DNA of 64,000 nt from an uncultured Poribacteria bacterium (GTDB taxonomy: Bacteria; Poribacteria; WGA-4E; WGA-3G). The notes under the pieces are model-generated. The model was not told the DNA's origin. It did not search any database and was given only the letters and a program-made list of their open reading frames with translations. The stretch's first letter is position 1. Every line of letters begins with the position of its first letter. A program made the position numbers and the translations under genes. Shown here in pieces: positions 30,490 through 49,322 of the stretch. The stretch covers positions 1,728,470 through 1,792,469 of the forward strand of contig OX639973.1 in the NCBI GenBank assembly GCA_951828385.1, in the 5' to 3' direction.

Positions 30490-31153
30490 AATTTACGATT
30501 TTTTCTTAGATATAAAAAATAATCCCATGGATTATGTTGGCTGGTCAAGTAACTCCGATTTTGAAAAACAAGTAATAAATCAGTTGGAAACGTTTGGTTA
30601 CTATGAAACTAACTTCAATGAGTTAGGAAATAGCTACAGGACATATTGGCGAGAACTGATAGAAATCGATGACGGAATTATAGAAAACACAACACGATTC
30701 AAGCAAAACTATATTTTTCAACCTTTCGGTACACAAAGCTACCCGGACACCCTGATAATAGACAACAAAACCGTGTTGTGTTTAGAGTTAAAATCCAGTA
30801 AGGGCACAAGACCTGTTTGGAATTCTGGATTGCCTAAGGCAAATGGTATATATGCATTCGGATCCTATGTCAAAAAGGATATTACATTTTTTAGAGGTTG
30901 CGATATACTCAATGATGAAGATAGGAAACGACTCTCAGGATTCTTTGAAAACGCAATGAAAAATGCTGAATCATTTAATCAGGAATACATGTCAAACCAA
31001 GAATTCGGTTTTGGCGTGTATGCGAGAAAAATGTATCAAAATCAACGAACATACAATTCTAAAGCTATTATTAACTTTTTTCAAAATCATAGACGATACG
31101 ATTTAGAAAGGCAAGTATTAGAATATTGCAAAGGATTACAGGATTCTGACTAA
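30482..31153 (+). CDS. Putative Type II restriction endonuclease (PD-(D/E)xK)
   Basis: The ATG at 30482 overlaps the MTase stop (tATGAGTAG). SYPDTLIIDNKTVLCLELKSSKG gives the PD...(E)xK nuclease motif. AT-rich like the MTase. Confidence 0.5.
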   Translation: MSRIYDFFLDIKNNPMDYVGWSSNSDFEKQVINQLETFGYYETNFNELGNSYRTYWRELIEIDDGIIENTTRFKQNYIFQPFGTQSYPDTLIIDNKTVLCLELKSSKGTRPVWNSGLPKANGIYAFGSYVKKDITFFRGCDILNDEDRKRLSGFFENAMKNAESFNQEYMSNQEFGFGVYARKMYQNQRTYNSKAIINFFQNHRRYDLERQVLEYCKGLQDSD

Positions 31154-34295: not shown

Positions 34296-34733
34296 TCACT
34301 TTAGCGGAATATCGTACTCGACAAGGGGCAGTCTTTCCCATTCCCGCCATTCCGGATCGTTTTCGTAGAAATCCGCCATCTCCTTCGCTTGTTCGCTTAG
34401 GATACGGTTTCTCTCCGCCTTTGGTAATTGCAGAAACTTACGACGTTCACTAAGGGGTTTATCAGTAGACGGATCCATCGGCTGATTAAGAAGGGGTTCG
34501 GCTTCTGTATCACAAGTCGACTCACCCCACAGTTGGGCGGACTTAATTCCAAGGGCGGAAGCAATTCGATTAAGGACTCTCGCTGTCGGTTGAAGTTTCC
34601 CATGCTCATACTTCGACAACGTCTGACGGCTAACCGACCTATCAATTGCATCCTCCAAGTCCCCGAGTGACATACCACGAGCAAGTCTAAATCTTCTCAG
34701 TGGTTCTCCTACCATGATTACAATACCCTTCAT
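34296..34733 (-). CDS. XRE-family helix-turn-helix transcriptional regulator
   Basis: LRRFRLARGMSLGDLEDAIDRSVSRQTLSKYEHGKLQPTARVLNRIASALGI is a typical HTH_3 domain. Starts 2 nt after the Panacea-gene stop. Confidence 0.7.
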   Translation of the reverse strand: MKGIVIMVGEPLRRFRLARGMSLGDLEDAIDRSVSRQTLSKYEHGKLQPTARVLNRIASALGIKSAQLWGESTCDTEAEPLLNQPMDPSTDKPLSERRKFLQLPKAERNRILSEQAKEMADFYENDPEWREWERLPLVEYDIPLK

Positions 34734-34735
34734 TT

Positions 34736-35305
34736 TTAGAACGGAATATGATCAGATTCATCGGTTGTTATCCGCTTTAGAAAGGAGAGGACGCTTTTGA
34801 TATCCTTTGTACTCACGTCCCAGCCGTACTCTTTAGCAATCTGCTGAACCTGTGTGAGTGTGAGCGTTCCGTTCCGTTCCCAGCTGACAATGTAATAGAC
34901 CTTTGCCGCAATAGAGAGTATGTTAAAGTGTTTAGAGATAGGCTGTTCGTTTATCCGATTTATAGCATTTTGCCATTCCAAAAACTGAGGTTTCTGCTGA
35001 ATGTCCTCCCAGACTGGCTCAACATTATCGGGAACAGAATAAGTATGCCGGCGGATTTCACCAAAAACATTCTGATCATTTGAAAAGGACTCTGTCACTT
35101 CTTTAAGTAACCCACAGTTTACCAAACTATCTAAGTGGCTTGCAACGTAACTACTGTAGGGCCCATAATAATGTGGCGAGAACCCTAAATCAAACTTCAT
35201 CAGGACTGATAAAAAATAAACCTTCTTCTGCAGAAGCGTTCTGCCGCGCAGTCCATTTTCGCCTTCACTCTTCACAACGAGGAGAAGGATGTCAATAATG
35301 TGCAT
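34736..35305 (-). CDS. Panacea-domain (DUF4065, SocA/PanA-like) protein
   Basis: LQKKVYFLSVLMKFDLGFSPHYYGPYSSYVASHLDSL fits the DUF4065 core (LQKLLYF....F.A...GP). The ATG at 35305 (MHIIDI) has an AAGGAGG SD 4-5 nt upstream and lies 11 nt after the HD-gene stop. The ORF-track start at 35329 lacks an SD. Confidence 0.6.
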   Translation of the reverse strand: MHIIDILLLVVKSEGENGLRGRTLLQKKVYFLSVLMKFDLGFSPHYYGPYSSYVASHLDSLVNCGLLKEVTESFSNDQNVFGEIRRHTYSVPDNVEPVWEDIQQKPQFLEWQNAINRINEQPISKHFNILSIAAKVYYIVSWERNGTLTLTQVQQIAKEYGWDVSTKDIKSVLSFLKRITTDESDHIPF

Positions 35306-35316
35306 GTTGCCTCCTT

Positions 35317-36690
35317 TTAGACAGAACACAAAATGTTTTGAATGTCAGCCTCAAGTTCGGAAGGAGCTTTCTGTTTTTTGGACAGATTCCAATCATCGGG
35401 CGAGGCATAAACTTGTACCGTTTCTAAAGAAGCATCGTCGCCAGGGGGACGTACGAAAGATAGTTCACTTGCATAATACCCAATACGCCTTAGTACATCA
35501 TACTTCTCGTCAAGAATTTCGATCGATTCTGGATTTAGAATTTTGCTCCGCCTTCCATAGTCAGGGTTCCGAATCTGACGCTTATGGACAATCACATCGG
35601 TAGCGTCAATTTCGAGATAATGTGCGATCTTTTGCTCCCATTGCTGCTTTTGGGCATCCGCCATTTCAAGTAGTCTTGGTAGACTCCTTGCATCTTCAAC
35701 TTCTTTAAGTGGCAATTCGGCGATCTTTTTGAAAAGTTTTCTGTGGTAAAGTCGATTGAAAATTTCACATGCTTTCTCTTGTTTGCAGTGCCTCAAAATG
35801 TCAATCACCTTTTCGTCGTGATAATTTAGATACCTCTGAATGAAGTTTTCTTTATCATTTTCATCGTATTGATAGAGTTCTTTCATGTCAGAATTGCCGC
35901 TTTCAATTGCAAGCGTAATCCCACGGATAATCATCTGGTTGGAAATCAAACTGACTTTGTGCCAATAGACCTGCTGTGTCATGTGATAGCGCGCAAGCAG
36001 GAGTTGTTCAAGAGCATAAATTCCTGCACTACTCATAACAAGGGAGGTTGTGTTTCTATCCTTATCAATACGGCAGGATTCAATTATTTGTTCCAAATCG
36101 TACTGTCCATACTTGACACCGGCGAAATAGGAATCTCGCAGGAGATAATCCATTTTATCGGCATCAAGTTCACTGGAGATAACGTTACGCCGCCAATCCC
36201 GCATATCCTTCTCTTTAATCAGCCTAACCACAAATTCCCGTTCATCATCGTCCAGAATAGATCTAATCTTCGGGTCTGTTTCGATTATATCAACCGTGAT
36301 CTGTTCGTGTATTTTTTCCCGTGTTTCACCGATACCAGTCTGATCGCGAGCGTACTTTTCTAAGAGATCTTCAGAAACATGACTGAACGGCCCATGCCCA
36401 ATATCATGGATCAACGCAGCCAAGCGCATTAAGTCAACATCTCGATCATTTACGTCATTAGATCCCAACTCTTTGAGCCTGGAACAAATTCTCCCGACAA
36501 TGTGCATCACCCCAATTGAATGATCAAAGCGAGTATGCAAGGCCCCTGGATACACCAAAAACGTCATCGCCAACTGTCGGATCCGACGAAGCCGTTGAAA
36601 AGCCTTTGTGTTAATCAGTTTGACCTCTTTTTCTGAAAGTTCAATGAGCCCGTGAATCGGATCCCGGACTCGATATCTTCGTTCTGTCAT
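35317..36690 (-). CDS. HD-domain phosphohydrolase of the SAMHD1/dGTPase-like dNTP triphosphohydrolase family (COG1078)
   Basis: VRDPIHGLIELSEKEVKLINTKAFQRLRRIRQL...PGALHTRFDHSIGVMHI...LIHDIGHGPFSH and DADKMDYLLRDSYFAGVKYGQYD are the signature segments of this family. Confidence 0.8.
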   Translation of the reverse strand: MTERRYRVRDPIHGLIELSEKEVKLINTKAFQRLRRIRQLAMTFLVYPGALHTRFDHSIGVMHIVGRICSRLKELGSNDVNDRDVDLMRLAALIHDIGHGPFSHVSEDLLEKYARDQTGIGETREKIHEQITVDIIETDPKIRSILDDDEREFVVRLIKEKDMRDWRRNVISSELDADKMDYLLRDSYFAGVKYGQYDLEQIIESCRIDKDRNTTSLVMSSAGIYALEQLLLARYHMTQQVYWHKVSLISNQMIIRGITLAIESGNSDMKELYQYDENDKENFIQRYLNYHDEKVIDILRHCKQEKACEIFNRLYHRKLFKKIAELPLKEVEDARSLPRLLEMADAQKQQWEQKIAHYLEIDATDVIVHKRQIRNPDYGRRSKILNPESIEILDEKYDVLRRIGYYASELSFVRPPGDDASLETVQVYASPDDWNLSKKQKAPSELEADIQNILCSV

Positions 36691-37100
36691 ATTAAAATTA
36701 TACCATTTTTTGATAAGTAATTCAAATTATTTTCACTAAAATCTGCACAAAGCGTAGATTTATCAAGTTTATATTTGCTGCATCTGGAAACCGGAGAAGG
36801 TATTAACGTTTGCTCCAGCGGAGCAATATGTCTATAGCAGCCAGGAGAACCGGTCCTGCACTCCAGCGGAGTGCTATGTGTCTTGAAAGCATACCCGGAA
36901 ACCTCTGTGGAAACAATGCAGCGTTTCTATGGAATACATTGGGTTTTACTCGCTTTCAAGCAACAGATTGAAAATTGTCCAAAGTTTGGCATGAGTATAT
37001 CAGAGGCGTATTTCATTTTCAAGGGAAAAGCTTGGTGTGGATTGCGCAGAAATGGGTTTGTGTGTTCAGGGTTTGTTTTCTAAATGGCAGTTTCTTGACT

Positions 37101-37150
37101 ATCTGAATCGCGGATTATCACGGATGACACAGATTTCGCGGATTGATACT
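37101..37150 (+). repeat. Copy A of a 45-bp direct-repeat-containing motif tgaatcgcggatt.tcacggatgacacagatttcgcggattg
   Basis: Two further copies at 37791-37835 and 37868-37912. Confidence 0.6.
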
Positions 37151-37245
37151 CTATAACATCATGTAATCCGATAAAAGGATAGTTTTTACTTTACTGCTGT
37201 GTCTACAAGGGAATTAGCATTGCGGCAATGTCTTCCGGGAGTTTA
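37150..37245 (-). pseudogene. Orphan duplicate of the 3' end of a TIR-TPR-like gene (encodes ...LPEDIAAMLIPL*)
   Basis: About 85 bp closely similar to 37935-38020, the last codons of 37973..39694 (...LPADIAALLTPSQT*) plus downstream sequence. No upstream gene body. Confidence 0.45.
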
Positions 37246-37442: not shown

Positions 37443-37679
37443 TCAAAAGATAAGGTCATCACCACTCACCTCGGACAAGTCAAGTGCCGAGGTATTCCCT
37501 ATTTTGAGTTTCTCGGCATAAATCTCGTCCCATGTCTGTGCAAGGGATGGACGGATTAGGATGCCATCATCTGTTCTTTCAAGCACAACACCCGATTCCA
37601 ACCCCAATTCTTTCACCCAGTCAAGAGGCAATTTGATTTTATAATCAGTTTCCAACGCAAGCGTTTTCATGGTATCCAC
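37443..37679 (-). CDS. AbrB/MazE/SpoVT-like swapped-hairpin DNA-binding protein (antitoxin-like)
   Basis: KIKLPLDWVKELGLESGVVLERTDDGILIRP resembles the AbrB/MazE-type beta-barrel. No adjacent toxin gene. Confidence 0.5.
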   Translation of the reverse strand: MDTMKTLALETDYKIKLPLDWVKELGLESGVVLERTDDGILIRPSLAQTWDEIYAEKLKIGNTSALDLSEVSGDDLIF

Positions 37680-37790
37680 CTTTTCCTACAAATAGTTAAG
37701 AAAGTATACCACAACTCGCGTCGGTTATCAACGGTTTTAGTGGCAAATTTCTAATTGGCGGGGTGAGGAGTTGGCGTTTTCTTGTTATCT

Positions 37791-37912
37791 GAATCGCGGA
37801 TTAGCACGGATGACACAGATTTCGCGGATTTTAAGAGTAACTCTGTTCGTAGTTGCGCAATTCATTGCGTCTCTTGTCAGAATCGCGGATTTTCGCGGAT
37901 GACACAGATTTC
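37791..37912 (+). repeat. Copies B and C of the cgcggatt...cacagatttcgcggatt motif, in tandem 33 bp apart
   Basis: Seen directly. They lie between the AbrB-like gene and the 3' end of the TIR-TPR gene. Confidence 0.6.
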
Positions 37913-37972
37913 GCGGATTGGCACTCTGTAACATCAAGTAATCTACTAAAAGCACAGTTTTTTGTTTTGCTG

Positions 37973-39694
37973 CTATGTCTGTGAGGGAGTTAGCAGTGCG
38001 GCGATGTCTGCTGGCAACTGGATACCCGTTTTCTGCTCAAAATCTTCGACGTTTGCGTAATCATTATGGAGTTCAGCAATGAGGTCCATACCAAGGTCTT
38101 GGGCTGTGATAAAGTCGGATTTGGCTTTTTCCCATTTTTTCATGTATAACCACAGTTGCGCGCGGATGACATAAGCTTGGGCAGAATCCGGACTGAGTTG
38201 TATCACTTTGGTACAGTCTTCAATAGCACTGTCAAAATCACCTTTAGTATAGTAAGTAGCACTTCGATTGTAATAAGTTATGGCATCATTCGGATTGAGT
38301 AGTATCACTTTGGTATAGTCTTCAATAGCACTGTCAAAATTGCCTTTTTCCCTATAAACATTGCCTCGATCGCGATATGCCTTGACATAATCAGGTTTTA
38401 GTTCTATTGCTTTTGTATAGTCTTCAATAGCAAGATCAATCTTATCTATTTCCTCGTAAACAGCACCTCGGTTGTAATAAGCGTTGGCATAATCAGGTTT
38501 GAGTTTTATTGCGGTGTTATAGTCTTTTATGGCATTATCAAGATCGTCTTTGTCAGCGTAAGCATTACCCCGATTGTTATATGCCGTGCTATAATTAGGG
38601 TCTATTTTTATCGCTGTGTTATAGTCTCTGATAGCATTGTCAATGTCGCCTTTATCTCTATAAGCATTGCCTCGATTGCTATATGCCTCGGTATAATCTG
38701 GGTTGAGTTTTATCGCTGTGTTATAGTCATTGATAGCATTGTCAAAATCGTCTATGTTAACGTAAACATTGCCCCGATTGTTGAAGGCACTGGCATTACA
38801 AGGGTCCATCTCCATAGATTTGTTCAAGTCTCGAAGAGCACTGTCAAAATCGTCTTTTATATTGTAAGCCGCTCCCCGGTTACTGTAGGCCGTGGCATAA
38901 TTGGGATTGAGTTGTATCGCTTTACTATAGTCTTTAATAGCTTTGTTAACCTCACCTTTGCGGATGTAAGCTGTTCCTCGATTGTTGTAGGCTGTGGCAT
39001 AATCGGGATTGAGTTGTATCGCTTTGCTCAAATCCACAATAGCTTTGTCAAACTTGTCAAGATTAATATAAGCAGCCCCCCGGTTGTTATAGGCTGCAAC
39101 ATCTTTCGGACTGAGTTCAACTGTTCGTGAGTATGCCTTTAACGCCTCGTCTATTTGCCCCAAAATCATCATGAAGTTACCCCGATGGAATGCTAAAGAA
39201 GCGAGTGTTTCTATTTCCTCGGGTGTTACACTGGGTGAAGGCTTTGCTTGAGATTGCATTTCGTTTATAACCTTTCGGATGCCCTCTACTACACTCATCC
39301 ACCCTTTGCTCTCAGGGTTCCATTCGTTAATATCGTAAATTGGTTTGCCTTTTTCGGGAAGAGCTTGGAAATCACTAAGTTGATGATTTTGCCAATCGCA
39401 GTGTTCAAGGATAATCGGAATCACTCTTATGTTTGGATTTAACGCAGCAGTTAATTCTTTATTGCAGTTTTCAGAAGCGAGACTATACCGACAAGTAAGG
39501 TAGAGTAGAATGTCCGAATCGGCAAGATTGTTGAAAATTGCATCCCGCCATCTATCACCGGGTAGGATTTCGTTGTCGTGCCAGACATCAATTAACCCGT
39601 TTTGCCTCAGAACATCAAGGCTGGTTATCAATTCGTCCTTTGCTTCTGAATTTTTATGTGCATAGGTAATGAAAATCTTCAGCCCTTTATTCAT
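37973..39694 (-). CDS. TIR-domain protein with about 10 C-terminal TPR repeats
   Basis: The N-terminus KIFITYAHKNSEAKDEL...DVWHDNEILPGDRWRDAIFNNLADSDILLYLTCRYSLASENCNKEL matches bacterial TIR_2 domains (FISYxxxD ... YxxSxWCxxEL). This is followed by repeated AxYNNRGxAYxxxxxFDxAIxDYxxAIxLxP TPR units. The ATG at 39694 overlaps the MTase stop (ATGAATAA) and sits 5 nt after a GGAGGG in the MTase 3' end. Confidence 0.75.
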   Translation of the reverse strand: MNKGLKIFITYAHKNSEAKDELITSLDVLRQNGLIDVWHDNEILPGDRWRDAIFNNLADSDILLYLTCRYSLASENCNKELTAALNPNIRVIPIILEHCDWQNHQLSDFQALPEKGKPIYDINEWNPESKGWMSVVEGIRKVINEMQSQAKPSPSVTPEEIETLASLAFHRGNFMMILGQIDEALKAYSRTVELSPKDVAAYNNRGAAYINLDKFDKAIVDLSKAIQLNPDYATAYNNRGTAYIRKGEVNKAIKDYSKAIQLNPNYATAYSNRGAAYNIKDDFDSALRDLNKSMEMDPCNASAFNNRGNVYVNIDDFDNAINDYNTAIKLNPDYTEAYSNRGNAYRDKGDIDNAIRDYNTAIKIDPNYSTAYNNRGNAYADKDDLDNAIKDYNTAIKLKPDYANAYYNRGAVYEEIDKIDLAIEDYTKAIELKPDYVKAYRDRGNVYREKGNFDSAIEDYTKVILLNPNDAITYYNRSATYYTKGDFDSAIEDCTKVIQLSPDSAQAYVIRAQLWLYMKKWEKAKSDFITAQDLGMDLIAELHNDYANVEDFEQKTGIQLPADIAALLTPSQT

Positions 39695-42600
39695 CCTTTC
39701 CCTCCACAATCGCAATCTCATCTTCCGTTAAATTATACAATTCATACACCAATTTATCAATCTCATCTTCAAGGGAGGAAGTGTCTGCTTCGGAGTCAGT
39801 GTGTTTAGCGTCAAGGATTTCGTCAACTTGCATTTCAATCTGTTTGACAATGGATTGGTTTGCATCGGTGATAGGTGGAATAGGAAAGTTTTTCATAAAC
39901 TCACTTTTAAACCTGACTCCTTTTGAACCTAAATGACCACCAGCATAGTAACTTTTGAATGCGAAAAGGAAAAACCCTGAATTTAAGAGACCAAGCAAGT
40001 AAGTGAGATTTTTGCCCGTTAAAAACCTTGTCGTATCAAGCGAATAGAATTTGTTTTTATCAATAAGAAATTTCCCTTCTTTTGCCATCTCTTGCCAAAC
40101 AATCTTTTCCTTATCAAATTCTGAGTAGTAGGCACAAGCCCTGAGATTCCACCAATTTTCGCCTTGATCGTCTCTATTCAAGAGTCCTTTACCTTTCATT
40201 TTTATGATTCCCGAGTCCATCCGTTTTGCTAAGGTCTCAAGGTGATTATAGATAGCGGGATATTTATTGGGAATATCCAGATCGGAACCTGTTGCGAGTA
40301 TGTAAAATTTCCCTTGTTGAGCATGGTAACGTTTAATGTCTTTTCCGCGTAGGAGTGGTTTTATGATTTCTGCTGACTTTGGGTCTTGCTTTATGAGTTG
40401 CTCACGTTTTGCTTCGTCTATGATGAATGCTTCATTACAACCTGTTATGATTCCACGATAGATGTTTATATCCCAATCTTTAAGCGGTTTGCCGATACCC
40501 TCTATTTTGCGTTTCAGGTTGAGTTCGGCAGGTGAGAGTATCGCCCACGGTTCACCTTTAGCAGGCATCTCCATAGTCGCGCCATTGGTACTCAAATACC
40601 GGACTATGCTGCCGGTCTGTCTGTCAAAGTCTGCTCCCAGAGATACACCTCTAAAGGCAGCGGGTACATCGGATACACTCTTTTGAAAAAGCAAGATGTT
40701 TGTGTCAACGGTGGCATCAAACACGTCTGGTCCCATATCCAGCAGTTGAATCGGTTGGGTAAGTGTTACAAAGTAATCCCTCAATTTTTTACCGTAACCA
40801 GCGCGCATCCATTTATTAGAAGTAATCAAACAGGCATGTCCATTGGTTTTCAAAAGTTGATTCGCTTTTTCATAGAACAAACAGTAAATATCGCCTGTAC
40901 GGGCGAAGGTTTCAAAACCTGCGCCTTGATAAAGTTTCCCAAGTCTCCCATTTTCCTTTTGCAATTGGACATAAGGCGGATTTCCAAGTACCACATCAAC
41001 TCCGTCTCTGATGCCAAACATCCGTTCCGGTTCAAACCAATCTGTCTTTGCGTTCTGGTCGTAGGGTTTCCAGCGAACGATTTTGCGAGCGTTTTCAAAT
41101 TCGGCATCAAATTCTTTCTTACGCGTTTCAAACGTTTTCTGTTCCTTCTCTCGCAACTGTTCACGCAGTTCAGCGGTGGGAAGTTGGTTCACTTTTTGAT
41201 CTATTTCTCGTTGTCGGCTCTCTATCCATTCTGTTCGCTGCCGCTCCAATTCTTCCTCCAATTGTTGGCGGCAATCTTCTTCTTGCTCTTCAAGTTTACG
41301 TTTTTGTGTTCGGTTGTTTGCGAGAAAAAACTTTTCACGAATCCCGTCAATTTCTTTTAGCAATTGCTGTACGGTATCATCTTGAAACAATCCCCTTGTT
41401 TCGGATAAATCTATGCCTATCAGTGTATCCGCAGCAACAAAACGTGTCTCCAAATTCGGCAGCGGTTTGATACCGAAGTTCTCCGCGTCTCTGTCCGGTT
41501 CCTGCTCAATAGCAAGCGATATGAAAAAGCGGAGTTTAGCGATTTGACACGCAATCGGTTGGATATCCACACCGAAGATGCTATTTTGGATTAGGTATAA
41601 TTTCCGTCCAAAATCCGAATCACGGTAACGCTCAAAAGTATCACTGATTTCGGAGAGCTCATCCTTCCGTTCCTGTGGATTTTGGGTGTTGAAGGCATTT
41701 GCAGCGCGTTCTTTTGCAAGTTGCATCTGTAATGCTTCCCATCGGTTGTTATCAGGGTCAAGTCGCCGGAGTGCCAGCGTCAACTTGTGGAGTATACCCA
41801 TTGGAAATGCCCCGGAACCGACGGCTGGATCCAATATCTTGAGTTCAGAAATTGTTTTCACAATCGCGTCCGTTTCGCGGTTGTCAAACCATTCGTGAGC
41901 ATCGTCAAACATTTTGGCATAGTCAAACAGGTATCGCAATCGTTCGTCCCAAAGTTCTGAATTACCATCACTCGGTTGACACTTTTGGGATAACGCAGCA
42001 ACTAACGCCTCCTCCACCATATAGTCTACGATAGCGCGTGGGGTGTAATAGGAGCCTGTCATCTTGCGCGCCGTTTCTCCCGTTTCCGGGTTGATAGCGG
42101 CGAGTAGGTTTTCAAACACCCTGCCGAGCAGTTCGGGGTCCAGTGCAACCTCCTGATCTACCGGCGTGTTCTCTTCAACGGTGAATTTGTAGTGTTCAAG
42201 TAAAGGGATCAATCCGTGCTGTGCGTCAAAAAAGAGGTGGTTCGGGATGGATAGCTTATGGTACTGATTATCAGAAAAGCAGTCTATTCGGTAACCGCCT
42301 TCACCTGTTGCCTTGAAACTATCCAGACAGTCAAACAAGCCACCGTTGATGAACGGCGTTTTGTCAAAAAATTCTAATAGCTTATCAGGCGCGCGCATCT
42401 GCTTCTTGTAGCGATACCGTGAGAAATTGCGGTGATTAGAATTGCCGCCCTTGCTAAACGTCCGTTTGTCTATCTCTGTGTTCAACGTTGCGAAAAAGAG
42501 GTTTTGTAGCACAGCACGGTAGTAAGAATCGCCGTTGTCAAAACCATTCTCTGTCAAAAGGTTTTGAACTTGTGCTTTGTTAAAGAGTTCATCTGCCACC

Positions 42601-43442
42601 AATCCTTTTTCCTTGATAAACCAGATAAAGAGCAGACGCGTGATGAGTCGGATAACATGCTCTTCCGGTTTTATCATACGATTCTCATCTGTCGGGAAGG
42701 TTGCCTCTTTAACTGCCCATTCATACCACGCGAACAGTTTCCGATAGAATTGCTTGTTGAGTGCTTCTGTATTGAGAATACCTTCCCACGCTTTATGGAG
42801 TGTGTCAAAGTTGGTAACGTCTTCAATTTCAATAAGGCTACGGAGGTGGAGTTCCGAGAGGATGTCAATATGGGCGCGCTTGGGGGAATCAAGGTTAATG
42901 TCCTTGATGAGCGTCACTTTTTCCAATACCTGCTTATTAGAGGTACGTTTGTGGTGCCTGCGGTTGATTATGGCGAGCGAGAGCACAGCACCGTATCGGA
43001 ACATCACCATGATAGATTTTTCAAATGCTTTGTTAATAAAACGGGTGATGTCAGCAAGTTGTGTGCGCGTGTAGGTATTTTTAGTCAGTTGAACGGTGAC
43101 GAACATATAAGAGGTTCTGAGTGCATCGTCTATGTGGGTACTCTCAAATAACGAACCCTGCTCTGGGTCTACCTGTTGGTTAATCTCATCGTCCGCTACT
43201 TGCATGATTTGGAAAAAGGATTGCCACTCTTCAATGCGGAGTTTATCAGATGGCTTGGCGGTGTCAAGGGCGGATTCGACGAGACGGTCAAACCTATTGC
43301 TGTCGATTGCATCATTTCCGACTCGCTTGCTGTAGTAGCCGAGGGTGTTCAGGAGAGTTGTGGCGGCTTCCCTTAGCGGTTGGTTATCGAAATTCTTTAG
43401 GGCGTTCTCAATGTTCTGTTTAATTGTTATGTCTGAATTCAT
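39687..43442 (-). CDS. Large (1251 aa) gamma-class N6-adenine DNA methyltransferase of the Eco57I / Type IIG / BREX-PglX-like kind
   Basis: TGSYYTPRAIVDYMVEEAL (motif X, the FxTP-type segment), DPAVGSGAFPMGILHKL (motif I), VVLGNPPYVQLQ (motif IV NPPY). An HsdM-like helical segment RLITRLLFIWFIKEKGL precedes the catalytic core, and a long C-terminal region is consistent with a target-recognition domain. Confidence 0.8.
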   Translation of the reverse strand: MNSDITIKQNIENALKNFDNQPLREAATTLLNTLGYYSKRVGNDAIDSNRFDRLVESALDTAKPSDKLRIEEWQSFFQIMQVADDEINQQVDPEQGSLFESTHIDDALRTSYMFVTVQLTKNTYTRTQLADITRFINKAFEKSIMVMFRYGAVLSLAIINRRHHKRTSNKQVLEKVTLIKDINLDSPKRAHIDILSELHLRSLIEIEDVTNFDTLHKAWEGILNTEALNKQFYRKLFAWYEWAVKEATFPTDENRMIKPEEHVIRLITRLLFIWFIKEKGLVADELFNKAQVQNLLTENGFDNGDSYYRAVLQNLFFATLNTEIDKRTFSKGGNSNHRNFSRYRYKKQMRAPDKLLEFFDKTPFINGGLFDCLDSFKATGEGGYRIDCFSDNQYHKLSIPNHLFFDAQHGLIPLLEHYKFTVEENTPVDQEVALDPELLGRVFENLLAAINPETGETARKMTGSYYTPRAIVDYMVEEALVAALSQKCQPSDGNSELWDERLRYLFDYAKMFDDAHEWFDNRETDAIVKTISELKILDPAVGSGAFPMGILHKLTLALRRLDPDNNRWEALQMQLAKERAANAFNTQNPQERKDELSEISDTFERYRDSDFGRKLYLIQNSIFGVDIQPIACQIAKLRFFISLAIEQEPDRDAENFGIKPLPNLETRFVAADTLIGIDLSETRGLFQDDTVQQLLKEIDGIREKFFLANNRTQKRKLEEQEEDCRQQLEEELERQRTEWIESRQREIDQKVNQLPTAELREQLREKEQKTFETRKKEFDAEFENARKIVRWKPYDQNAKTDWFEPERMFGIRDGVDVVLGNPPYVQLQKENGRLGKLYQGAGFETFARTGDIYCLFYEKANQLLKTNGHACLITSNKWMRAGYGKKLRDYFVTLTQPIQLLDMGPDVFDATVDTNILLFQKSVSDVPAAFRGVSLGADFDRQTGSIVRYLSTNGATMEMPAKGEPWAILSPAELNLKRKIEGIGKPLKDWDINIYRGIITGCNEAFIIDEAKREQLIKQDPKSAEIIKPLLRGKDIKRYHAQQGKFYILATGSDLDIPNKYPAIYNHLETLAKRMDSGIIKMKGKGLLNRDDQGENWWNLRACAYYSEFDKEKIVWQEMAKEGKFLIDKNKFYSLDTTRFLTGKNLTYLLGLLNSGFFLFAFKSYYAGGHLGSKGVRFKSEFMKNFPIPPITDANQSIVKQIEMQVDEILDAKHTDSEADTSSLEDEIDKLVYELYNLTEDEIAIVEGKDE

Positions 43443-43461
43443 AGGCTACCTTTCTCAGTTA

Positions 43462-43701
43462 TCAATCCATAATGACACCTATCGGGTATTGTCCGGTCGG
43501 CGCAGTCGGTTCGATAGAGAATCCGAAGTTCGGATGCGACGGGTCCGGGTCCGTGCCGATCGAGTACGTGAACGGCACCGTGATGATATGCGTACCATAT
43601 CCCGTAATGGTTTTCTTTCGATGGGCTTCCGGTATTTGAAGCGTACAATTGATGTTAACCGTCACACAAACCGTAAATACATCCGTACAAATCGAAGACA
43701 T
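43462..43701 (-). CDS. Small hypothetical ORF (79 aa) between the lipoprotein gene and the MTase
   Basis: ORF track only. A competing 69-aa frame exists. GAAAGG lies 7 nt upstream of the MTase ATG that follows. No homology recognised. Confidence 0.25.
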   Translation of the reverse strand: MSSICTDVFTVCVTVNINCTLQIPEAHRKKTITGYGTHIITVPFTYSIGTDPDPSHPNFGFSIEPTAPTGQYPIGVIMD

Positions 43702-43724
43702 TTGCTATTCCTCTAACATTACCC

Positions 43725-43946
43725 CTAATTGCATGTGTTGTGAGATGACGCGACCGGGGCCCGGATCGTAATCTGGGTCCATATAGACGCACGCAATCCC
43801 TTCCCGTTTTTTATTGCCGTGTTGCACTTCAACGATTTCCCAAAAGTTACGGGTCTGCCTACTAATGCTTCTTGCATTGGGGTCTCCTTTAGTTCATCCA
43901 CCACAATTAGCGGATATTGGTTTTCGATACACTTATTTGTCGCCAT
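43725..43946 (-). CDS. Small hypothetical ORF (73 aa) abutting the stop of 43947..44927
   Basis: ORF track only. The start is immediately adjacent to the upstream stop, suggesting co-transcription. Confidence 0.3.
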   Translation of the reverse strand: MATNKCIENQYPLIVVDELKETPMQEALVGRPVTFGKSLKCNTAIKNGKGLRASIWTQITIRAPVASSHNTCN

Positions 43947-44927
43947 TTATTCATACTTCCTCGATTCAACTGCACGTAGATTTATCGGATCAAACCACTC
44001 CGCGAGCAACGTATACATCAACGGCTCTCTCTCACGAAATAGGTCGAGGGCATGTGCTTTCTCTTCTAACGAAAACCAGAGAAACCAGTGTTTTACGCCC
44101 TCTGCCCAGTATTCCCCCTTCGTTGTCAGTGCGTAACTTCCGAGAGAACTGCCAGTTTCTCTTGCAGACTGGAAAGCGGCTTTGAGACGGGCATCAAAAG
44201 TCGTATCTAAGAGCTCAATTGCTATATGGATGGCATGCGCAAACTCATGGATGAATATCTCAAAACCCGAGTTAAAACCCGGTACAACATATACATTCGC
44301 CCAACCATAAGAAGAACCAAGTCCCCCTATCGTTACGATAGGATAGTCAATCGCACCATTCCCTAAGTGTATCTCAGGTATCACTGTGCGACCCTGATGT
44401 GCATTTACAAGAATCATACGGAATTTAGGGCTCGGTGTCGTGCGTCCGGTAACATCGTGTCTACAGCAGTGCTGCGTTGCGCCGGGTCGGTTTTCACGCG
44501 TAGGTGTGAGTAGTTCCCGGAGTTCAGGTCTCTTAAATGTCATGCCCAAAACGATGTCCCGTGCTACATAAAATAAACGGTCATCGATAAGCCCGTTCCC
44601 CATGATCGCAACACCGCCAGCGCTCACATATTTCGTGTAGTACGCTTCCTGCTCACGTCTGAGACATATCTGGTGGATCAGGGCCTTTGCCCGAATATCG
44701 TCGGGGTCATTATCACCCTCTATAGTATCCTCAAGTTCTGCCATGAGCGTGTCCACATCCTTGCCCCAGATGATGTCTTGGATGTTTATTGGCACGGGTC
44801 CGACATCCGGCAACGCTGCAGGTGCGGTCGGCGCAAGCCCGTCGAGCAGCACGCCTTCATCGCCACAGCCCCACGTCAAACAGAGAAAAAGTATCAGAAT
44901 TAGAAACGCTTTTATTTTTATGTGCAT
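43947..44927 (-). CDS. Putative secreted zinc metallopeptidase-like lipoprotein (HExxH)
   Basis: Signal peptide ending LTWGC (possible lipobox Cys). FIHEFAHAIHIAIE contains an HExxH motif. Family not recognised. Confidence 0.5.
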   Translation of the reverse strand: MHIKIKAFLILILFLCLTWGCGDEGVLLDGLAPTAPAALPDVGPVPINIQDIIWGKDVDTLMAELEDTIEGDNDPDDIRAKALIHQICLRREQEAYYTKYVSAGGVAIMGNGLIDDRLFYVARDIVLGMTFKRPELRELLTPTRENRPGATQHCCRHDVTGRTTPSPKFRMILVNAHQGRTVIPEIHLGNGAIDYPIVTIGGLGSSYGWANVYVVPGFNSGFEIFIHEFAHAIHIAIELLDTTFDARLKAAFQSARETGSSLGSYALTTKGEYWAEGVKHWFLWFSLEEKAHALDLFREREPLMYTLLAEWFDPINLRAVESRKYE

Positions 44928-45132
44928 TGGATGTCCTCCTAACTGCCGCTACCACTGCCACTGTCATAGATCGTGAACGAAAAATCAAATGAATCGTCTG
45001 GCATACTCAACATCGCTGGCATCACCTGCTTCTGTTTTCTCTTGTTCCGCCGCAATGGGTTCTCCTGTAGCGGTCTGTGAACCCGAAGTCGCGACCGCAA
45101 GCCGTTGTTCGTCTTGATAGTCGACAAGGAAT

Positions 45133-45240
45133 ACGTAGCATTTACATCTATATCGTAGCACATACTTCCAGTTTGTGCTCTATATCTATATCGTAGCACA
45201 TACTTCCAGTTTGTGCTACGAAGATTTCAGATATTGCTAC
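45133..45240 (+). repeat. Pair of REP heads (cgtagcacatacttccagtttgtgc x2, plus a partial third) immediately 3' of the RAYT gene
   Basis: Seen directly. Same palindrome core as the dispersed REP elements. Confidence 0.7.
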
Positions 45241-45908
45241 AAGTCGCATGTTTTGGATAGGTAATTCCACTTCCATTCTTTCCATTCTTTGACTAAACCT
45301 ATTTTTACCGGATTATTGAGGACATATCTAATAATCCGATGCAGTTCATCTGGATTACGGATACAATGGTCGTAACTTTCGTGTTGCCAGAATGCACCAC
45401 TACGTCCCAATATTTGATTTGCTTTTTGTGCTGTATAACTTTTGAGTGAATGCATGATGGAAGCTAACGAATGGTAACGCATATTGTGAGTCTGTTTATC
45501 GTCTGTTACAGAAGGTTGGATTTCCAGTGGTGTAAATACGACATGGACATGGTTTGCCATGATGCAGTATGAAATTAAAGAATATACTTTCCCATTTAGG
45601 TGGTGAAGACTCTCGGCTACCAATTTAGCTATCTGTTCGTTTTTGAGCCACACGGGTCCGTTATTTGCTTGGTCTAATGTTTCTTCAAATTTTCGGAACC
45701 ACTCACGTTTCTTGTCTGGGATATCTTGCTTCTGTTTGAAGGTTATCTGTTCTGCTGCTTCAAGTTTTCTCTTTTCTGTGATGTACTGTTGTAAGATATG
45801 TTTCGGTATTGATCCTGTCAGGTTAAATGTTATGAAGAAGGTTGCCCCTGGGGGTTGTATATGTGGTAAGTTACGACGATAGTATGATTTGTAGTTATAT
45901 TGATTCAT
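45237..45908 (-). CDS. REP-associated tyrosine transposase (RAYT, IS200/IS605 TnpA-like HUH Y1 transposase)
   Basis: N-terminal YYRRNLPHIQPPGATFFITFNL matches the RAYT R-R-x-L-P-H...F-x-T-F signature. HUH motif in ANHVHVVF. The catalytic Tyr region ESYDHCIRNPDELHRIIRYVLNNP. It is flanked by REP copies. The ATG at 45908 was chosen over the ORF-track start because RAYTs begin near the RR.LPH motif. Confidence 0.75.
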   Translation of the reverse strand: MNQYNYKSYYRRNLPHIQPPGATFFITFNLTGSIPKHILQQYITEKRKLEAAEQITFKQKQDIPDKKREWFRKFEETLDQANNGPVWLKNEQIAKLVAESLHHLNGKVYSLISYCIMANHVHVVFTPLEIQPSVTDDKQTHNMRYHSLASIMHSLKSYTAQKANQILGRSGAFWQHESYDHCIRNPDELHRIIRYVLNNPVKIGLVKEWKEWKWNYLSKTCDL

Positions 45909-46055
45909 TTTTAGCTTTTCCGTTTTACATCTATATTTTTTGTAGTGTCCACTTCCGAAGTGGCGCATCCATTATCTGTGTAGCGTCCATTTCTATTTGG
46001 CGAAAAACAGAATTCTACAGAAGACACAATCTGGAAGATTGTGGTACAACATGGG

Positions 46056-49000
46056 CTAATGTCTAATGACTAACCACGTAACGAGTTCAAATTCAGTTTT
46101 TTCTGTAATCTGACTATCGGCGGTTGGGAGCAGTGCATCAGGGCTTGCATCGAGTTGGTCGTTGACTTTTTGGTTGTATTCCTTGCGAATTGAATTGAGG
46201 GCTACATCGAGTAGCATCTCATAGATCGTCATATCGTTGCCGTTGTCGGTTTCTTCGTTGAAATAGTTGCAGAGCTCTTGATCGTGATTTGTCTTTCCGA
46301 CACAGAGAATGCTGAAGCGTTCTAAAATCCGTTTAGGATTTGTGAATCCGATAGAGATTTCGCCATCATCGCTGATATGGACGAGGTAGTACGGGTGAAT
46401 GGGGTTAAGTTTTTTCCCTTCTTCACTGTCTTCTGCCTCATCGGTCTGCTTTAGACAGAAGATAACCCCCGGTTTAATATTTACAGGAGTGCCATCGTGT
46501 GTGAGCGGTGCGGTAACGGCATATAAGCCAAGCGGGGCATCCCGAAGTTTCGCTTCGTTTTCACGCAGATAGTTGAGTAGCTGCGCACGGAAATCGTCAA
46601 GCGTGAATTGGTTGAGATTCAATTGCTCTTCGATATCCTCAAAGTCAAGGATATCGGTTTGCATGCGGCGGAGTTGCTCGTCGCGGTGCGACCAGACCTG
46701 TTCCATACTCTCTTTTTCCGTCAATGAGAGCAGGTCATCATCACCCGTAGCAGTAAGATTGACGAGTGCCATGCGTGCCTCAACGCGAGGTTTTAAGTTA
46801 ATATATGCGTCGAGTTCAGGGGTAGGCCAGAAGTTGATAAGATGAATTTTCTTGTTCTTGCTGCCGATACGGTCAATTCGTCCGAAACGTTGGATAATCC
46901 GGACGGGGTTCCAGTGGATGTCGTAATTGATGAGATAATCGCAATCTTGTAAGTTTTGTCCTTCGGAGATACAATCGGTAGCGATGAGCAGATCAATTTC
47001 TGGGAGTTCATCTTCGCCTTCTGTTTCACCTTCGTCCCTCTCTTTGGAAATCGGTGAGAAATTGGTAAGAATCTCGTCAAAATCGTTTCGGACGAGTTCG
47101 CTTCTGCTTGCACCACCGGTAACGACAGCGGATTCAATATTAAGCGTCTCCTTTGCCCATTCGTATAGATTATCGTAGAGATAGTTGGCGGTATCGGCAA
47201 AGGCGGTAAAGACGAGAACCTTGCGATTCTCTTTTCCACATCGGTTTTTTGCGGGGTTCTGCACCTTAGCGGCGATCAGCTGCTTGAGTTGCTCCAATTT
47301 GGCATCCCGATCGGACGTAATATTTTGTGCGATTTTGTAAATTTTATCCAATTGCGTTCTATCGTCGTGAAGGTCAGCAAGCCAAGCGTCAAGATCAAGA
47401 TGTTCATAGCGGTAGGTCTGATTTTTTCCCGCCTGCACGCCGGTTTGTAGTTCGTCATCCTCTCCATATTCTTCCGTTGTTTCGGCAAAGGGATCGAACC
47501 CGTTTTCGCTTACAACACTTGCGGTCGCATTCAGAAAGTCCTGAATTTCAGACGCACGCGCTTTGATATTTTCAATGGTGCGTTCAAGGGTTGATGCGAA
47601 GGAGTGGACGCTGCTCTCAAGCCGTTTGAGAAAGTTCACCTTCATCATACCGATGAGGTTAAACTCGCGCTGCTGAAGAAGTCTCTCTCCGTAATGGTGA
47701 CGGCATTCCTGACGAATGTATCTTGACGGATTGAAGATTGCAAGTCGATACCCATCAATCTGGTGGCTGATGGTTTGGTAAGTGGGAAATTTCCCTTGCA
47801 GGTCAATTTCAGGAAAGATGGACTGCGGTGGTTCACGATCCGGGAATTGACCGACCTCTTCAATCGCATTCTCATAGAAGTTTATGACATGGGTCCGAGA
47901 ACGAGCGATAGTGAGTCTATCGAGCAGGGGAAAAAAGTCAGCATTCAGACTTTCCGCAAGACTTTCGTGTTGTTGAGAATTTTTAGGTATCTGCTCTGTT
48001 TCTGTTGTCCACGTATCAAAACGACTTTGTGCAGCGTTGAGCGTTCCTTTAATGCTTGGAATACCAGTCTGTCTAAAAGCGTCGTCCCTATCCTCAGTGA
48101 TTAAACATATTTGATTATCAAGGTCGGTAAGCCGATTGTTGACTGGGGTCGCAGAGAGCATTAAGACTTGGGTTTTGCCGCCACTCTGGATGACATCTTC
48201 CATCAATTTCTCGTAACGGGCACCGCGATTTCGGAAGTTGTGGGATTCGTCGATGACAATAAGATCATATCCATCCCATTCGTGTTGTGCAAGGTCAATA
48301 CCGTTGGATTCTCCACTGTCTCGGCTTAGATCCGTGTGTGCAAGCACGTTGTAACGAAACCGATCGGCTTTCAGGGGATTACGTTTCCTGCGAAAGTGTA
48401 TTGGATAAAGCGTCCAGTTCTTTTCTAATTTTTTAGGGCATAGGACTAAAACATTAGCGTTTCGCAATTCAAAGTACTTGATAATCGCGAGTGCCTCGTA
48501 GGTTTTACCCAATCCGACGCTATCAGCGATAATACAACCGTTGTGTGCCTTGAGTTTCTGGAGGCATGCCTGAACACCGTGTTTTTGAAAAGCGTAGAGT
48601 TTCTGCCAGATTTCTGTCTCCAGGAATGAAGGATTCGCTTCAGCGAACTGCATATCGCTTGCATCTGCCAATATGTTTTCAAAGAGGTGGTAAAGCGTTT
48701 TGTAGTAGATGAATTCGGGGGCTTTGTCCTGATAAGCATTTTTGAGGGTTTGCAACACCTGTGCTTTTACATCCGCCACCTGATCCGATTCCCAAAGGTT
48801 ATCAAACCATGTCTTAAGGTCAGCACAGTCACTTTTACTGTCAACTTCGAGGTTGAGTTCAATGTTGCTTGCTTTTTCGCTTAACCCCAAGCCACGCACG
48901 GTAAAGTTTGAGCTCCCGATAATCGCATCTTCAGTCCTATCGTTCTCTATATAATACATTTTGCCGTGCAGGAAATTTGATTTACGGACTGAACGGATCT

Positions 49001-49322
49001 CGACCTTTTTTTCAATCCACTCGGCGCAAGCTCTGGCGACCTCTTTTTGGGGAAGATAGTTTTGGAGTTTTAACCCAGTTTCGGTAAGTTGGAACGCCTT
49101 GCTTTCGGTTTTGTCGGGATCAATGTGAATAAAACTGGGTTCACCGAACAAGAAACGGAGTCCTTTGATACTTGTTAATTCGTCTCTGAGTTTGTCGAAG
49201 GCGTAAATCGTGAAATAGGCGGAGACAATGGAGAGATCAGAACCGTCTTGGATTTTATCTCGCAGAAAATCGGCGACGGTGCCGTACATGCTGTTGTCTC
49301 GGATACGGGAGGTTTTTGACAT
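46056..49322 (-). CDS. PLD-family nuclease fused to an SNF2-family helicase
   Basis: N-terminal HKD motif context HGKMYYIEN...AIIGSSNFT (PLD nuclease). Helicase motifs GLGKT (Walker A), DESHNF (DExH), and a helicase C-terminal domain (QRFGRIDRIG). Confidence 0.8.
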   Translation of the reverse strand: MSKTSRIRDNSMYGTVADFLRDKIQDGSDLSIVSAYFTIYAFDKLRDELTSIKGLRFLFGEPSFIHIDPDKTESKAFQLTETGLKLQNYLPQKEVARACAEWIEKKVEIRSVRKSNFLHGKMYYIENDRTEDAIIGSSNFTVRGLGLSEKASNIELNLEVDSKSDCADLKTWFDNLWESDQVADVKAQVLQTLKNAYQDKAPEFIYYKTLYHLFENILADASDMQFAEANPSFLETEIWQKLYAFQKHGVQACLQKLKAHNGCIIADSVGLGKTYEALAIIKYFELRNANVLVLCPKKLEKNWTLYPIHFRRKRNPLKADRFRYNVLAHTDLSRDSGESNGIDLAQHEWDGYDLIVIDESHNFRNRGARYEKLMEDVIQSGGKTQVLMLSATPVNNRLTDLDNQICLITEDRDDAFRQTGIPSIKGTLNAAQSRFDTWTTETEQIPKNSQQHESLAESLNADFFPLLDRLTIARSRTHVINFYENAIEEVGQFPDREPPQSIFPEIDLQGKFPTYQTISHQIDGYRLAIFNPSRYIRQECRHHYGERLLQQREFNLIGMMKVNFLKRLESSVHSFASTLERTIENIKARASEIQDFLNATASVVSENGFDPFAETTEEYGEDDELQTGVQAGKNQTYRYEHLDLDAWLADLHDDRTQLDKIYKIAQNITSDRDAKLEQLKQLIAAKVQNPAKNRCGKENRKVLVFTAFADTANYLYDNLYEWAKETLNIESAVVTGGASRSELVRNDFDEILTNFSPISKERDEGETEGEDELPEIDLLIATDCISEGQNLQDCDYLINYDIHWNPVRIIQRFGRIDRIGSKNKKIHLINFWPTPELDAYINLKPRVEARMALVNLTATGDDDLLSLTEKESMEQVWSHRDEQLRRMQTDILDFEDIEEQLNLNQFTLDDFRAQLLNYLRENEAKLRDAPLGLYAVTAPLTHDGTPVNIKPGVIFCLKQTDEAEDSEEGKKLNPIHPYYLVHISDDGEISIGFTNPKRILERFSILCVGKTNHDQELCNYFNEETDNGNDMTIYEMLLDVALNSIRKEYNQKVNDQLDASPDALLPTADSQITEKTEFELVTWLVIRH

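Follow-up and report, generated by a model that had tools for sequence, protein, structure and literature searches.

A gene cluster on the minus strand of the 64,000-nt stretch of Poribacteria DNA analysed here (hereafter the window) is, on balance, probably a layered anti-phage module, in which a restriction-modification (R-M)-like first line of defence is backed by a co-expressed TIR NADase as a second line. A model of how such a module might work is as follows. The first layer would be a two-gene, ATP-dependent R-M-like system, which we infer from domain content and conserved gene pairing: a 1251-aa DNA methyltransferase (MTase) with a target-recognition domain (TRD) would recognise the target and methylate host adenines, and a protein combining an HKD nuclease with an SNF2 helicase (HKD-SNF2) would translocate on unmodified DNA and cut it. 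The second layer would be a TIR-TPR gene, a cassette that is attached to the MTase gene at its conserved 3′ tail and, via translational coupling, co-expressed with it. The TPRs and C-terminal tail of its product would sense infection, and the TIR domain, with its conserved glutamate E80, would abort it by consuming NAD+, in the manner of the known single-protein TIR-TPR system TIR-II. Cassettes of this kind would be swapped by homologous recombination on the MTase tail. The five minus-strand open reading frames (ORFs) on which an earlier reading of this DNA (the original prediction) had been built are all present, at 37973-39694, 39687-43442, 43462-43701, 43725-43946 and 43947-44927.

The components of the first layer are recognised by domain matches, motifs and synteny. 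The 1088-aa HKD (PLD) nuclease and SNF2 helicase, encoded at 46056-49322 on the minus strand, matches PLDc_2 (2.6e-11), RE_NgoFVII, SNF2-rel_dom, ResIII and Helicase_C in Pfam and both C3a139 ‘HKD+Snf2’ (6.3e-124) and DrmD (2e-39) in PADLOC, and its motifs are intact (H119-x-K...GSSN, GLGKT270, DESH358 and QRFGRIDR811). The MTase, encoded at 39687-43442 on the same strand, is a gamma-class N6-adenine enzyme with a TaqI_C-type TRD. It carries the Pfam domains Eco57I (4.8e-35), N6_Mtase and TaqI_C (7.8e-9), motif I as PAVGSGAF539 and motif IV as NPPY821; it matches the PADLOC family REase_MTase_IIG (2.6e-135), its C-terminal half matches CamA in the PDB (7e-17), and it is akin to Type IIG, PglX and DrmMI enzymes. 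In all of the five close loci compared (L001-L005, whose MTases are 76-86% identical to that of the window) the HKD-SNF2 gene lies directly 5′ of the MTase gene on the same strand, with gaps of 20-1400 bp. The same arrangement is found much further away: a search with the MTase alignment gave 80 metagenomic loci with 34-55% MTase identity, many of them from non-sponge environments, and HKD-SNF2 is encoded upstream on the same strand in 44 of the 46 that have at least 3.5 kb of upstream flank. Because this partner is conserved in close and distant loci alike, the MTase is predicted not to be an orphan enzyme but the subunit that provides modification and specificity in a two-gene R-M-like system that is widespread, and HKD-SNF2 is predicted to be its conserved partner, the restriction and translocase subunit.

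This pairing changes the picture given by the original prediction, in which the MTase was accompanied by no nuclease and by no BREX or DISARM gene, and the TIR-TPR protein acted instead of a nuclease, as the only effector of a two-component self/non-self system that reads methylation. The window indeed holds no BREX or DISARM core gene, but a nuclease-helicase is there, and it is the near-universal partner of this MTase family. The overlap and conserved adjacency of the MTase and TIR-TPR genes would fit such a two-component system, and so would an MTase N-terminus with no conserved PD-(D/E)xK motif and only weak fold matches. It is largely refuted, however, by the intact HKD-SNF2 gene in the same strand cluster together with the 44/46 and 5/5 counts; moreover, most family MTases come without a TIR-TPR gene and TIR-TPR genes occur without the MTase. 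We therefore regard it as very improbable. The N-terminus itself was compared among 38 aligned MTase homologues, and its consensus is AVxLxxNTY; the ‘D-x12-VQLTK’ stretch that had been proposed as a degenerate PD-(D/E)xK nuclease is not conserved among them. A complete Type IIG enzyme with an intact nuclease domain, which would have left the TIR-TPR gene as an unrelated passenger, is likewise rejected: the gamma-class N6-adenine motifs and the C-terminal TRD of that type are present, the N-terminal PD-(D/E)xK nuclease is not, and fold matches in this region are weak.

When the window MTase was compared with those of L001-L006, L010, L014 and L016, the N-terminal ~250 aa, the coiled centre (aa ~650-800) and the TRD (aa ~1050-1200; 39687-40300 in the window) were found to switch independently of each other, from ~30% to more than 90% identity. 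The TRD is swapped regardless of the effector gene that follows. This mosaicism suggests that the specificity of the system is frequently shuffled. An apparent co-variation of the MTase C-terminus with the kind of effector head, TIR or FRG (see below), which might have hinted at physical contact, was rejected, the divergent block being the TRD swap. In one Poribacteria genome (L142:1-11624) the HKD-SNF2 gene is followed by two tandem family MTases of 1247 and 1207 aa, and the same genome also carries helicase-less orphan copies of the MTase (L141 and L143).

The TIR-TPR gene (37973-39694, minus strand) encodes 573 aa from MNKGLKIF, with a TIR domain at aa ~7-150, 9-10 TPRs at aa ~169-525 and a C-terminal tail at aa ~521-573. 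Searches with hidden Markov models bore out the TIR, TPR and gamma-class MTase identities given in the original prediction, the TIR-TPR protein matching TIR_2 (5.1e-16) and TPR_1 (1e-99) in Pfam and ThsB/ThsB1 (2.4e-24) in PADLOC. As a PDB search with the TIR domain as a single sequence gave nothing useful, a profile of 48 TIR homologues was used instead; it matched the CRISPR-associated TIR NADase Cat1 (1.7e-6) and also TLR TIR domains. Residue E80 aligns with the glutamate of the C-x-x-E-L motif common to Cat1 and TLR TIR domains, and it is kept in at least 90% of the 48 homologues. No signal peptide is evident on the protein. The TIR-TPR protein is predicted to be an NAD+-consuming second-line effector and sensor in one, and a role in defence is likely. 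ThsB being the best PADLOC match, a Thoeris-like arrangement also comes to mind, in which the product of the TIR domain would be a signal of the cyclic ADPR type, acting on a separate effector whose gene lies elsewhere. Yet the window holds neither ThsA (SIR2/SLOG/Macro) nor any other candidate receiver, and the TIR domain has a TPR sensor of its own in the same polypeptide, like single-gene TIR-II, so that we consider signalling of this sort highly unlikely.

The TIR-TPR protein belongs to a larger family built on a common plan of head, TPRs and tail. Its TPRs and its non-TPR C-terminal tail (…HNDY.SVEDFEQKTGIQLPADIAALLTP) are homologous, at 52-59% identity, to those of an FRG-TPR protein encoded in L001 and L005. 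The tail was found in 86 ORFs of the sampled loci, with heads that are TIR, FRG, DUF2971-like or missing altogether, and often 2-4 of these genes stand in tandem after the MTase gene. The list of TIR homologues, which names proteins of at most 290 aa and from which the identical full-length protein is absent, was left out of the architecture statistics. That the tail might be a docking motif specific for the MTase found no support, since it is equally frequent in loci without the MTase.

The two genes meet at a coupling junction (39687-39704, minus strand) in which the Shine-Dalgarno sequence GGAGGG (39704-39699) is embedded in the 3′ end of the MTase gene, 5 nt ahead of the TIR-TPR start codon ATG (39694-39692), and the MTase stop codon TAA lies at 39689-39687. 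As read from the sequence, the genes overlap by 8 nt, and the junction is as the original prediction had it. The same junction, usually with a 4-nt ATGA overlap, recurs with nearly identical nucleotides in 11 other loci, and the last ~75 nt of the MTase gene (…EIDKLVYELYNLTEDEIAIVEGKE) together with the ATGA overlap are almost identical even though the MTase bodies are only 39-68% identical. Inside the conserved codons of the MTase tail (EIDKLVYELYNLT), ~40 nt before the TIR-TPR start, there is a sigma-70-like TTGATA-N17-TATAAT sequence (39732-39760, minus strand) that matches 11 of 12 consensus positions, in a promoter scan whose overall yield was at chance level. It is kept in 17 of 61 MTase tails, all from the Poribacteria clade and regardless of the gene that comes next, and may be a candidate internal promoter for the downstream cassette.

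How general is this linkage? A scan of a genome collection with the TIR domain alone gave 54 loci, a set that is biased towards TIR heads: 45 are from Poribacteria metagenome-assembled genomes, 5 from Latescibacterota, 2 from Oxydemutator, 1 from Thermodesulfobacteriota and 1 from an unclassified bacterium. Homologues of the MTase, too, bear Candidatus Poribacteria names, and these observations assign the window to a Poribacteria symbiont of sponges. A family MTase, called when at least 400 residues could be aligned, is encoded upstream on the same strand in 29 of the 54, and downstream or on the opposite strand in none. The MTase gene abuts or overlaps the TIR start in about 16 loci, and the linked MTases span 39-83% identity and four phyla-level lineages. 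The adjacency is thus conserved and far from random, and since the order is fixed and the genes so often touch, co-expression of the MTase and TIR-TPR proteins is plausible; neither partner is obligate for the other. In addition, orphan remnants of the MTase tail, 20-60 codons long, lie directly before or after TIR-TPR genes, sometimes without any MTase gene (L008:11999, L015:11022, L011:1446, L046:2355, L039:9930 and L026:6063); the window has no such remnant. The near-identical junction between otherwise diverged MTase bodies and the orphan remnants together point to the TIR-TPR gene being a cassette whose exchange by recombination is anchored on the conserved 3′ end of the MTase gene.

Recombination on the tail would also explain why one and the same slot can hold a TIR-TPR gene, an FRG-TPR gene or other genes of the abortive-infection type. 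The pairing of MTase and TIR-TPR is not a fixed one. The orthologous locus L005, whose flanks are 95-98% identical to the window at the nucleotide level, differs from it in three respects: an insertion of ~1.7 kb, the head of the effector, and an extra pair of genes encoding an HD protein and a 197-aa protein. In L005 and in the other orthologous locus, L001, the MTase is followed by FRG-TPR, which differs from the TIR-TPR protein of the window in the head alone. FRG is a domain of the ART superfamily and a predicted NADase effector (PMC9503650), so that two NAD+-directed heads, TIR and FRG, would alternate on one scaffold. In other close loci the slot is taken by CBASS (L002) or by a head-less TPR gene with VapBC (L004). 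Among the distant metagenomic loci there are 18 in which the next gene and the MTase stop codon share 4 nt, and the commonest occupant, in 19 loci, is a Rad50-like ABC ATPase of 480-640 aa (PDB Rad50, 5e-12) with an N-terminal ATPase of the PrrC/RloC type, a weak C-terminal HEPN match and likeness to mad3/LmuB in PADLOC. Further distant occupants are a PifA-like KAP NTPase, AbiJ_NTD4/PDC-S32, a Schlafen AlbA_2 protein and a HEC-01A/AriA-like ATPase. A 4-nt overlap with the MTase stop is seen for the Rad50-like ATPase gene in many of L061-L139 (for example L114:11942-13513 and L101:11921-13831), and the same type of ATPase follows TIR-TPR genes in L030, L035, L044, L045 and L058.

Could the adjacency be devoid of function? 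The MTase 3′ tail might simply be a recombination hotspot for a large, expanding family of TPR-tail proteins, which could even be eukaryote-like proteins for interaction with the sponge host. Poribacteria are known for their TPR and ankyrin expansions, and an ankyrin-CotH gene adjoins this locus; the tail remnants that flank the cassettes and the 86 ORFs of the family, often in tandem and with varied heads, would fit as well. Against this, the heads (TIR, the predicted NADase FRG, and DUF2971-like) are typical defence effectors, and where TIR-TPR genes lack the MTase they still adjoin mostly genes of the defence type, among them SIR2, an EcoRI-type MTase accompanied by GmrSD/HNH, and ABC ATPases. 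Furthermore, the overlap of start and stop is preserved, the equivalent slot of non-sponge loci holds abortive-infection genes, and the absence of an evident signal peptide on the TIR-TPR protein does not suit a role at the host interface. A functionless adjacency therefore seems unlikely to us.

A more specific way in which the two layers might communicate is a guard of the PrrC kind, which we regard as possible if doubtful. The TIR-TPR or FRG-TPR protein would be bound through its TPRs and tail to the MTase/HKD-SNF2 complex and kept inactive there; a phage anti-restriction protein disabling the complex would release it, and NAD+ depletion would follow. Translational coupling and the strictly conserved gene order favour such a guard, as does the conserved C-terminal tail common to the TIR and FRG versions. 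In distant lineages the genes found in the slot, many of which overlap the MTase gene by 4 nt, encode Rad50-like ABC ATPases built like PrrC/RloC or other abortive-infection proteins, and there are precedents in PrrC/EcoprrI (PMC3710099) and in the PARIS-like back-ups of BREX loci (PMC12839542). However, TIR-TPR proteins have the tail and TPRs just as well in the ~23 loci without the MTase and in tandem arrays, variation in the TRD and C-terminus of the MTase does not follow the change from TIR to FRG, and TIR-II works as a single gene in E. coli (PMC11350192). More tentative still is the fuller version of this idea, in which TIR-TPR and FRG-TPR would be interchangeable NAD+-depleting guard modules that dock on the HKD-SNF2/MTase complex, fire when a phage anti-restriction function disables it, and spread among divergent R-M loci by recombination on an MTase 3′ tail that may itself bring a promoter and a Shine-Dalgarno sequence. 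If true, it would represent a plug-in second-line immune layer undescribed so far for TIR domains.

The layered module remains the reading that we prefer, and several points weigh against it. A stretch of 2.6 kb with a RayT gene and an insertion separates the helicase gene of the window from the MTase gene, so that their co-transcription is uncertain here; the orphan family MTases L141 and L143 have no helicase at all. Around 23 of the 54 TIR-TPR loci have no MTase nearby, and it is these loci together with the orphan MTases that make neither partner obligate; the occurrence of the TIR-TPR family without MTase linkage, which the original prediction had named as a refutation of its pair if broad, applies to these loci, and 29 of the 54 are linked. 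The sampled genomes come from related sponge symbionts, hence the linkage counts are not independent events, and a recombination hotspot could have produced the linkage as a neutral side effect. Scans for promoters and terminators performed no better than chance. Finally, the TIR domain could generate a signal instead of acting as an NADase, and, beside the observed domains, motifs, junction, synteny, linkage statistics and cassette signatures, it is by inference that we describe the enzymatic activities, the trigger and the communication between the layers.

As for known systems, the first layer resembles a split Type ISP enzyme, the DrmD/DrmMI pair of DISARM or the BREX-related Hma enzyme set. 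The last of these, Type-2 BR/Hma (HmaA-C), has an N-terminal HKD endoDNase-Swi2/Snf2 helicase and a large N6-adenine MTase and was proposed to be R-M-like (Rakesh & Krishnan 2026, PMC12839542). An HKD-Swi2/Snf2 helicase and an N6-MTase are present here too, but the defining DUF499 AAA+ ATPase (HmaC) and the standalone DUF3780 protein have no match among the ORFs of the island and the larger ORFs of the window, and HKD-SNF2 matches the PADLOC HmaA model only in part (6e-26, versus 6e-124 for ‘C3a139 HKD+Snf2’). With class 1 DISARM (DrmD, DrmMI and DrmA/B/C) the locus shares an SNF2 helicase beside a large Eco57I-type MTase and the presence of a PLD nuclease, which in DISARM is DrmC. It differs in that the PLD nuclease is fused to the helicase and that no gene for DrmA or DrmB (DUF1998) was found among the ORFs scanned in the window; the NCBIfam DrmD model gives HKD-SNF2 155.8 bits against a cut-off of 610. 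The MTase likewise scores 69.9 bits with BREX_1_MTaseX, whose cut-off is 500. As in Thoeris, there is a ThsB-type TIR domain, whereas the adjacent ThsA effector (SIR2/SLOG or Macro) is absent from the window. More generally, no ORF scanned across the window matches BrxA/B/C, PglZ, BrxL, DrmA/B, DUF499 or ThsA, and because these core genes are absent we reject membership of BREX, DISARM, Hma/BR or Thoeris. Single-chain Type ISP and Type IIG(L) enzymes (LlaGI, MmeI, DrdV and BpuSI) differ in turn, since the nuclease and motor are here on a separate polypeptide of HKD and SNF2 type and the MTase N-terminus has no conserved PD-(D/E)xK motif.

The second layer also has relatives, and the architecture is therefore not undescribed, as had been supposed. 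PrrC in EcoprrI and many HEPN families are effectors whose genes lie within R-M operons (Anantharaman et al. 2013, PMC3710099), and the embedded ‘back-up’ suicidal effectors that BREX and BR loci often carry were recently catalogued in a paper in which TIR has 0 occurrences (PMC12839542). Like PrrC, the TIR-TPR gene is an abortive-infection gene embedded in an R-M operon as a second line and apparently co-expressed with it, to judge from the overlapping stop and start and the 29/54 versus 0 gene order, and distant relatives of the MTase carry the PrrC-like, Rad50-like ABC ATPase in the slot. Unlike PrrC-EcoprrI, it has a TIR domain of NADase type with TPRs instead of an ABC-HEPN anticodon nuclease, and the R-M part is an HKD-SNF2/MTase pair instead of a Type Ic system; masking by the R-M proteins is here only hypothesised. 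TIR-II is a single-protein TIR-TPR anti-phage defence validated in E. coli, which needs a TIR active-site residue to defend and which causes cell death or growth arrest (PMC11350192). By domain architecture the protein of the window is like it, with TIR and TPRs in one polypeptide and a catalytic-site glutamate (E80 here); it differs in its family-specific C-terminal tail and in a gene that overlaps the MTase gene. In sum, R-M-like systems with an embedded abortive-infection effector and single-protein TIR-TPR defence are already described, and what is new is the family of TIR/FRG-TPR-tail cassettes, its attachment to an HKD-SNF2/MTase system and its exchange via the 3′ tail of the MTase gene.

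What follows from this? The large ‘Type IIG-like’ MTases, of which sponge-symbiont genomes hold several copies each, would be subunits of a two-gene HKD-SNF2 restriction-like system and not stand-alone enzymes, and annotations of an ‘orphan Type IIG’ in metagenome-assembled genomes call for a second look that takes the neighbouring genes into account. Exchangeable cassettes of the abortive-infection type would dock at a conserved site, the 3′ end of the MTase gene. A TIR or FRG NADase head carried there on a shared TPR scaffold would extend the PrrC-type logic of restriction with a suicide back-up to NAD+-targeting effectors, and the locus offers a clonable three-gene unit in which to study the communication between R-M and TIR.

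The three genes upstream of the MTase that had been counted into its operon do not belong there. They lie in a lineage-specific insertion of ~1.7 kb (43467-45140, minus strand) that is absent from the orthologous loci: in blastn comparisons with L005 and L001 homology ends at 45208 and restarts at 43466, and between these positions only REP-like repeats match. The largest (43947-44927, minus strand) encodes a lipoprotein with a signal sequence and lipobox and with the HExxH motif HEFAH, as first described. The two small ORFs (43462-43701 and 43725-43946, minus strand) matched no family in Pfam, PADLOC or NCBIfam and had no homologue in the loci compared. The lipoprotein belongs to a genuine family, for which 93 homologues were found; a homologue elsewhere sits among metabolic genes, and a tblastn search with the neighbours of that homologue found no match in the insert. 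Synteny and this unrelated context rule out the lipoprotein and small ORFs as members of the operon or of the defence module. Residues 222-279 of the lipoprotein, HEFAH included, weakly match the zinc-metalloprotease core of anthrax lethal factor (E 0.009), and among the distant homologues there are some fusions to cyclophilin domains. Between the helicase and MTase genes there is also a RayT-like REP-associated tyrosine transposase gene (45237-45968, minus strand), with matches to NCBIfam REP_Tyr_transpos (8.1e-19; 67.9 bits, curated cut-off 80) and to Pfam Y1_Tnp (7e-4). It is present in L001 and L005 as well, in a region that is 96-98% identical, and is a passenger. REP-like palindromic repeats (GTAGCACAAACTGGAAGTATGTGCTAC...; 45136-45235) adjoin it, and the 1.7-kb insertion sits in their array. 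A second family of repeats (translating as ...NRGLSRMTQISRI...) is found at 37037-37156 and 37771-37931, flanking the 3′ region of the TIR-TPR gene.

At 0.444, the GC content of the region around the module is below the 0.472 of the window as a whole, and a value this low or lower is found in 18% of windows of equal size; the difference in GC exists, but as a sign of an acquired defence island it is weak. Beyond the TIR-TPR gene lies the gene pair that forms an indel relative to L005, a second candidate defence cassette in the island (34741-36682, minus strand). It consists of a dGTPase-like HD/HD_assoc_2 protein of 457 aa (PADLOC dGTPase, 6e-14) and the overlapping 197-aa ORF, which weakly matches DarG-C and NDT_II-A; past this pair, the window and L005 again have genes in common, one encoding an HTH protein (34296-34733) and one a DUF433 protein. 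A 78-aa ORF (37443-37679, minus strand) lies in a stretch with ~72% nucleotide identity to a part of L004 in which a 75-aa gene and then a PIN-domain gene form a VapBC-like pair; the alignment ends before the PIN gene, and the ORF may be an orphan antitoxin-like remnant. On the plus strand, a Type II MTase gene (PADLOC MTase_II, 7.5e-58) overlaps a 262-aa ORF without a family match (29632-31153); this is the lowest-GC stretch of the window (0.354) and may be a separate small R-M system. Lastly, a 467-aa ORF at 13159-14562 (minus strand) matches the PADLOC candidate single-gene defence family PDC-S27 (1.5e-52).

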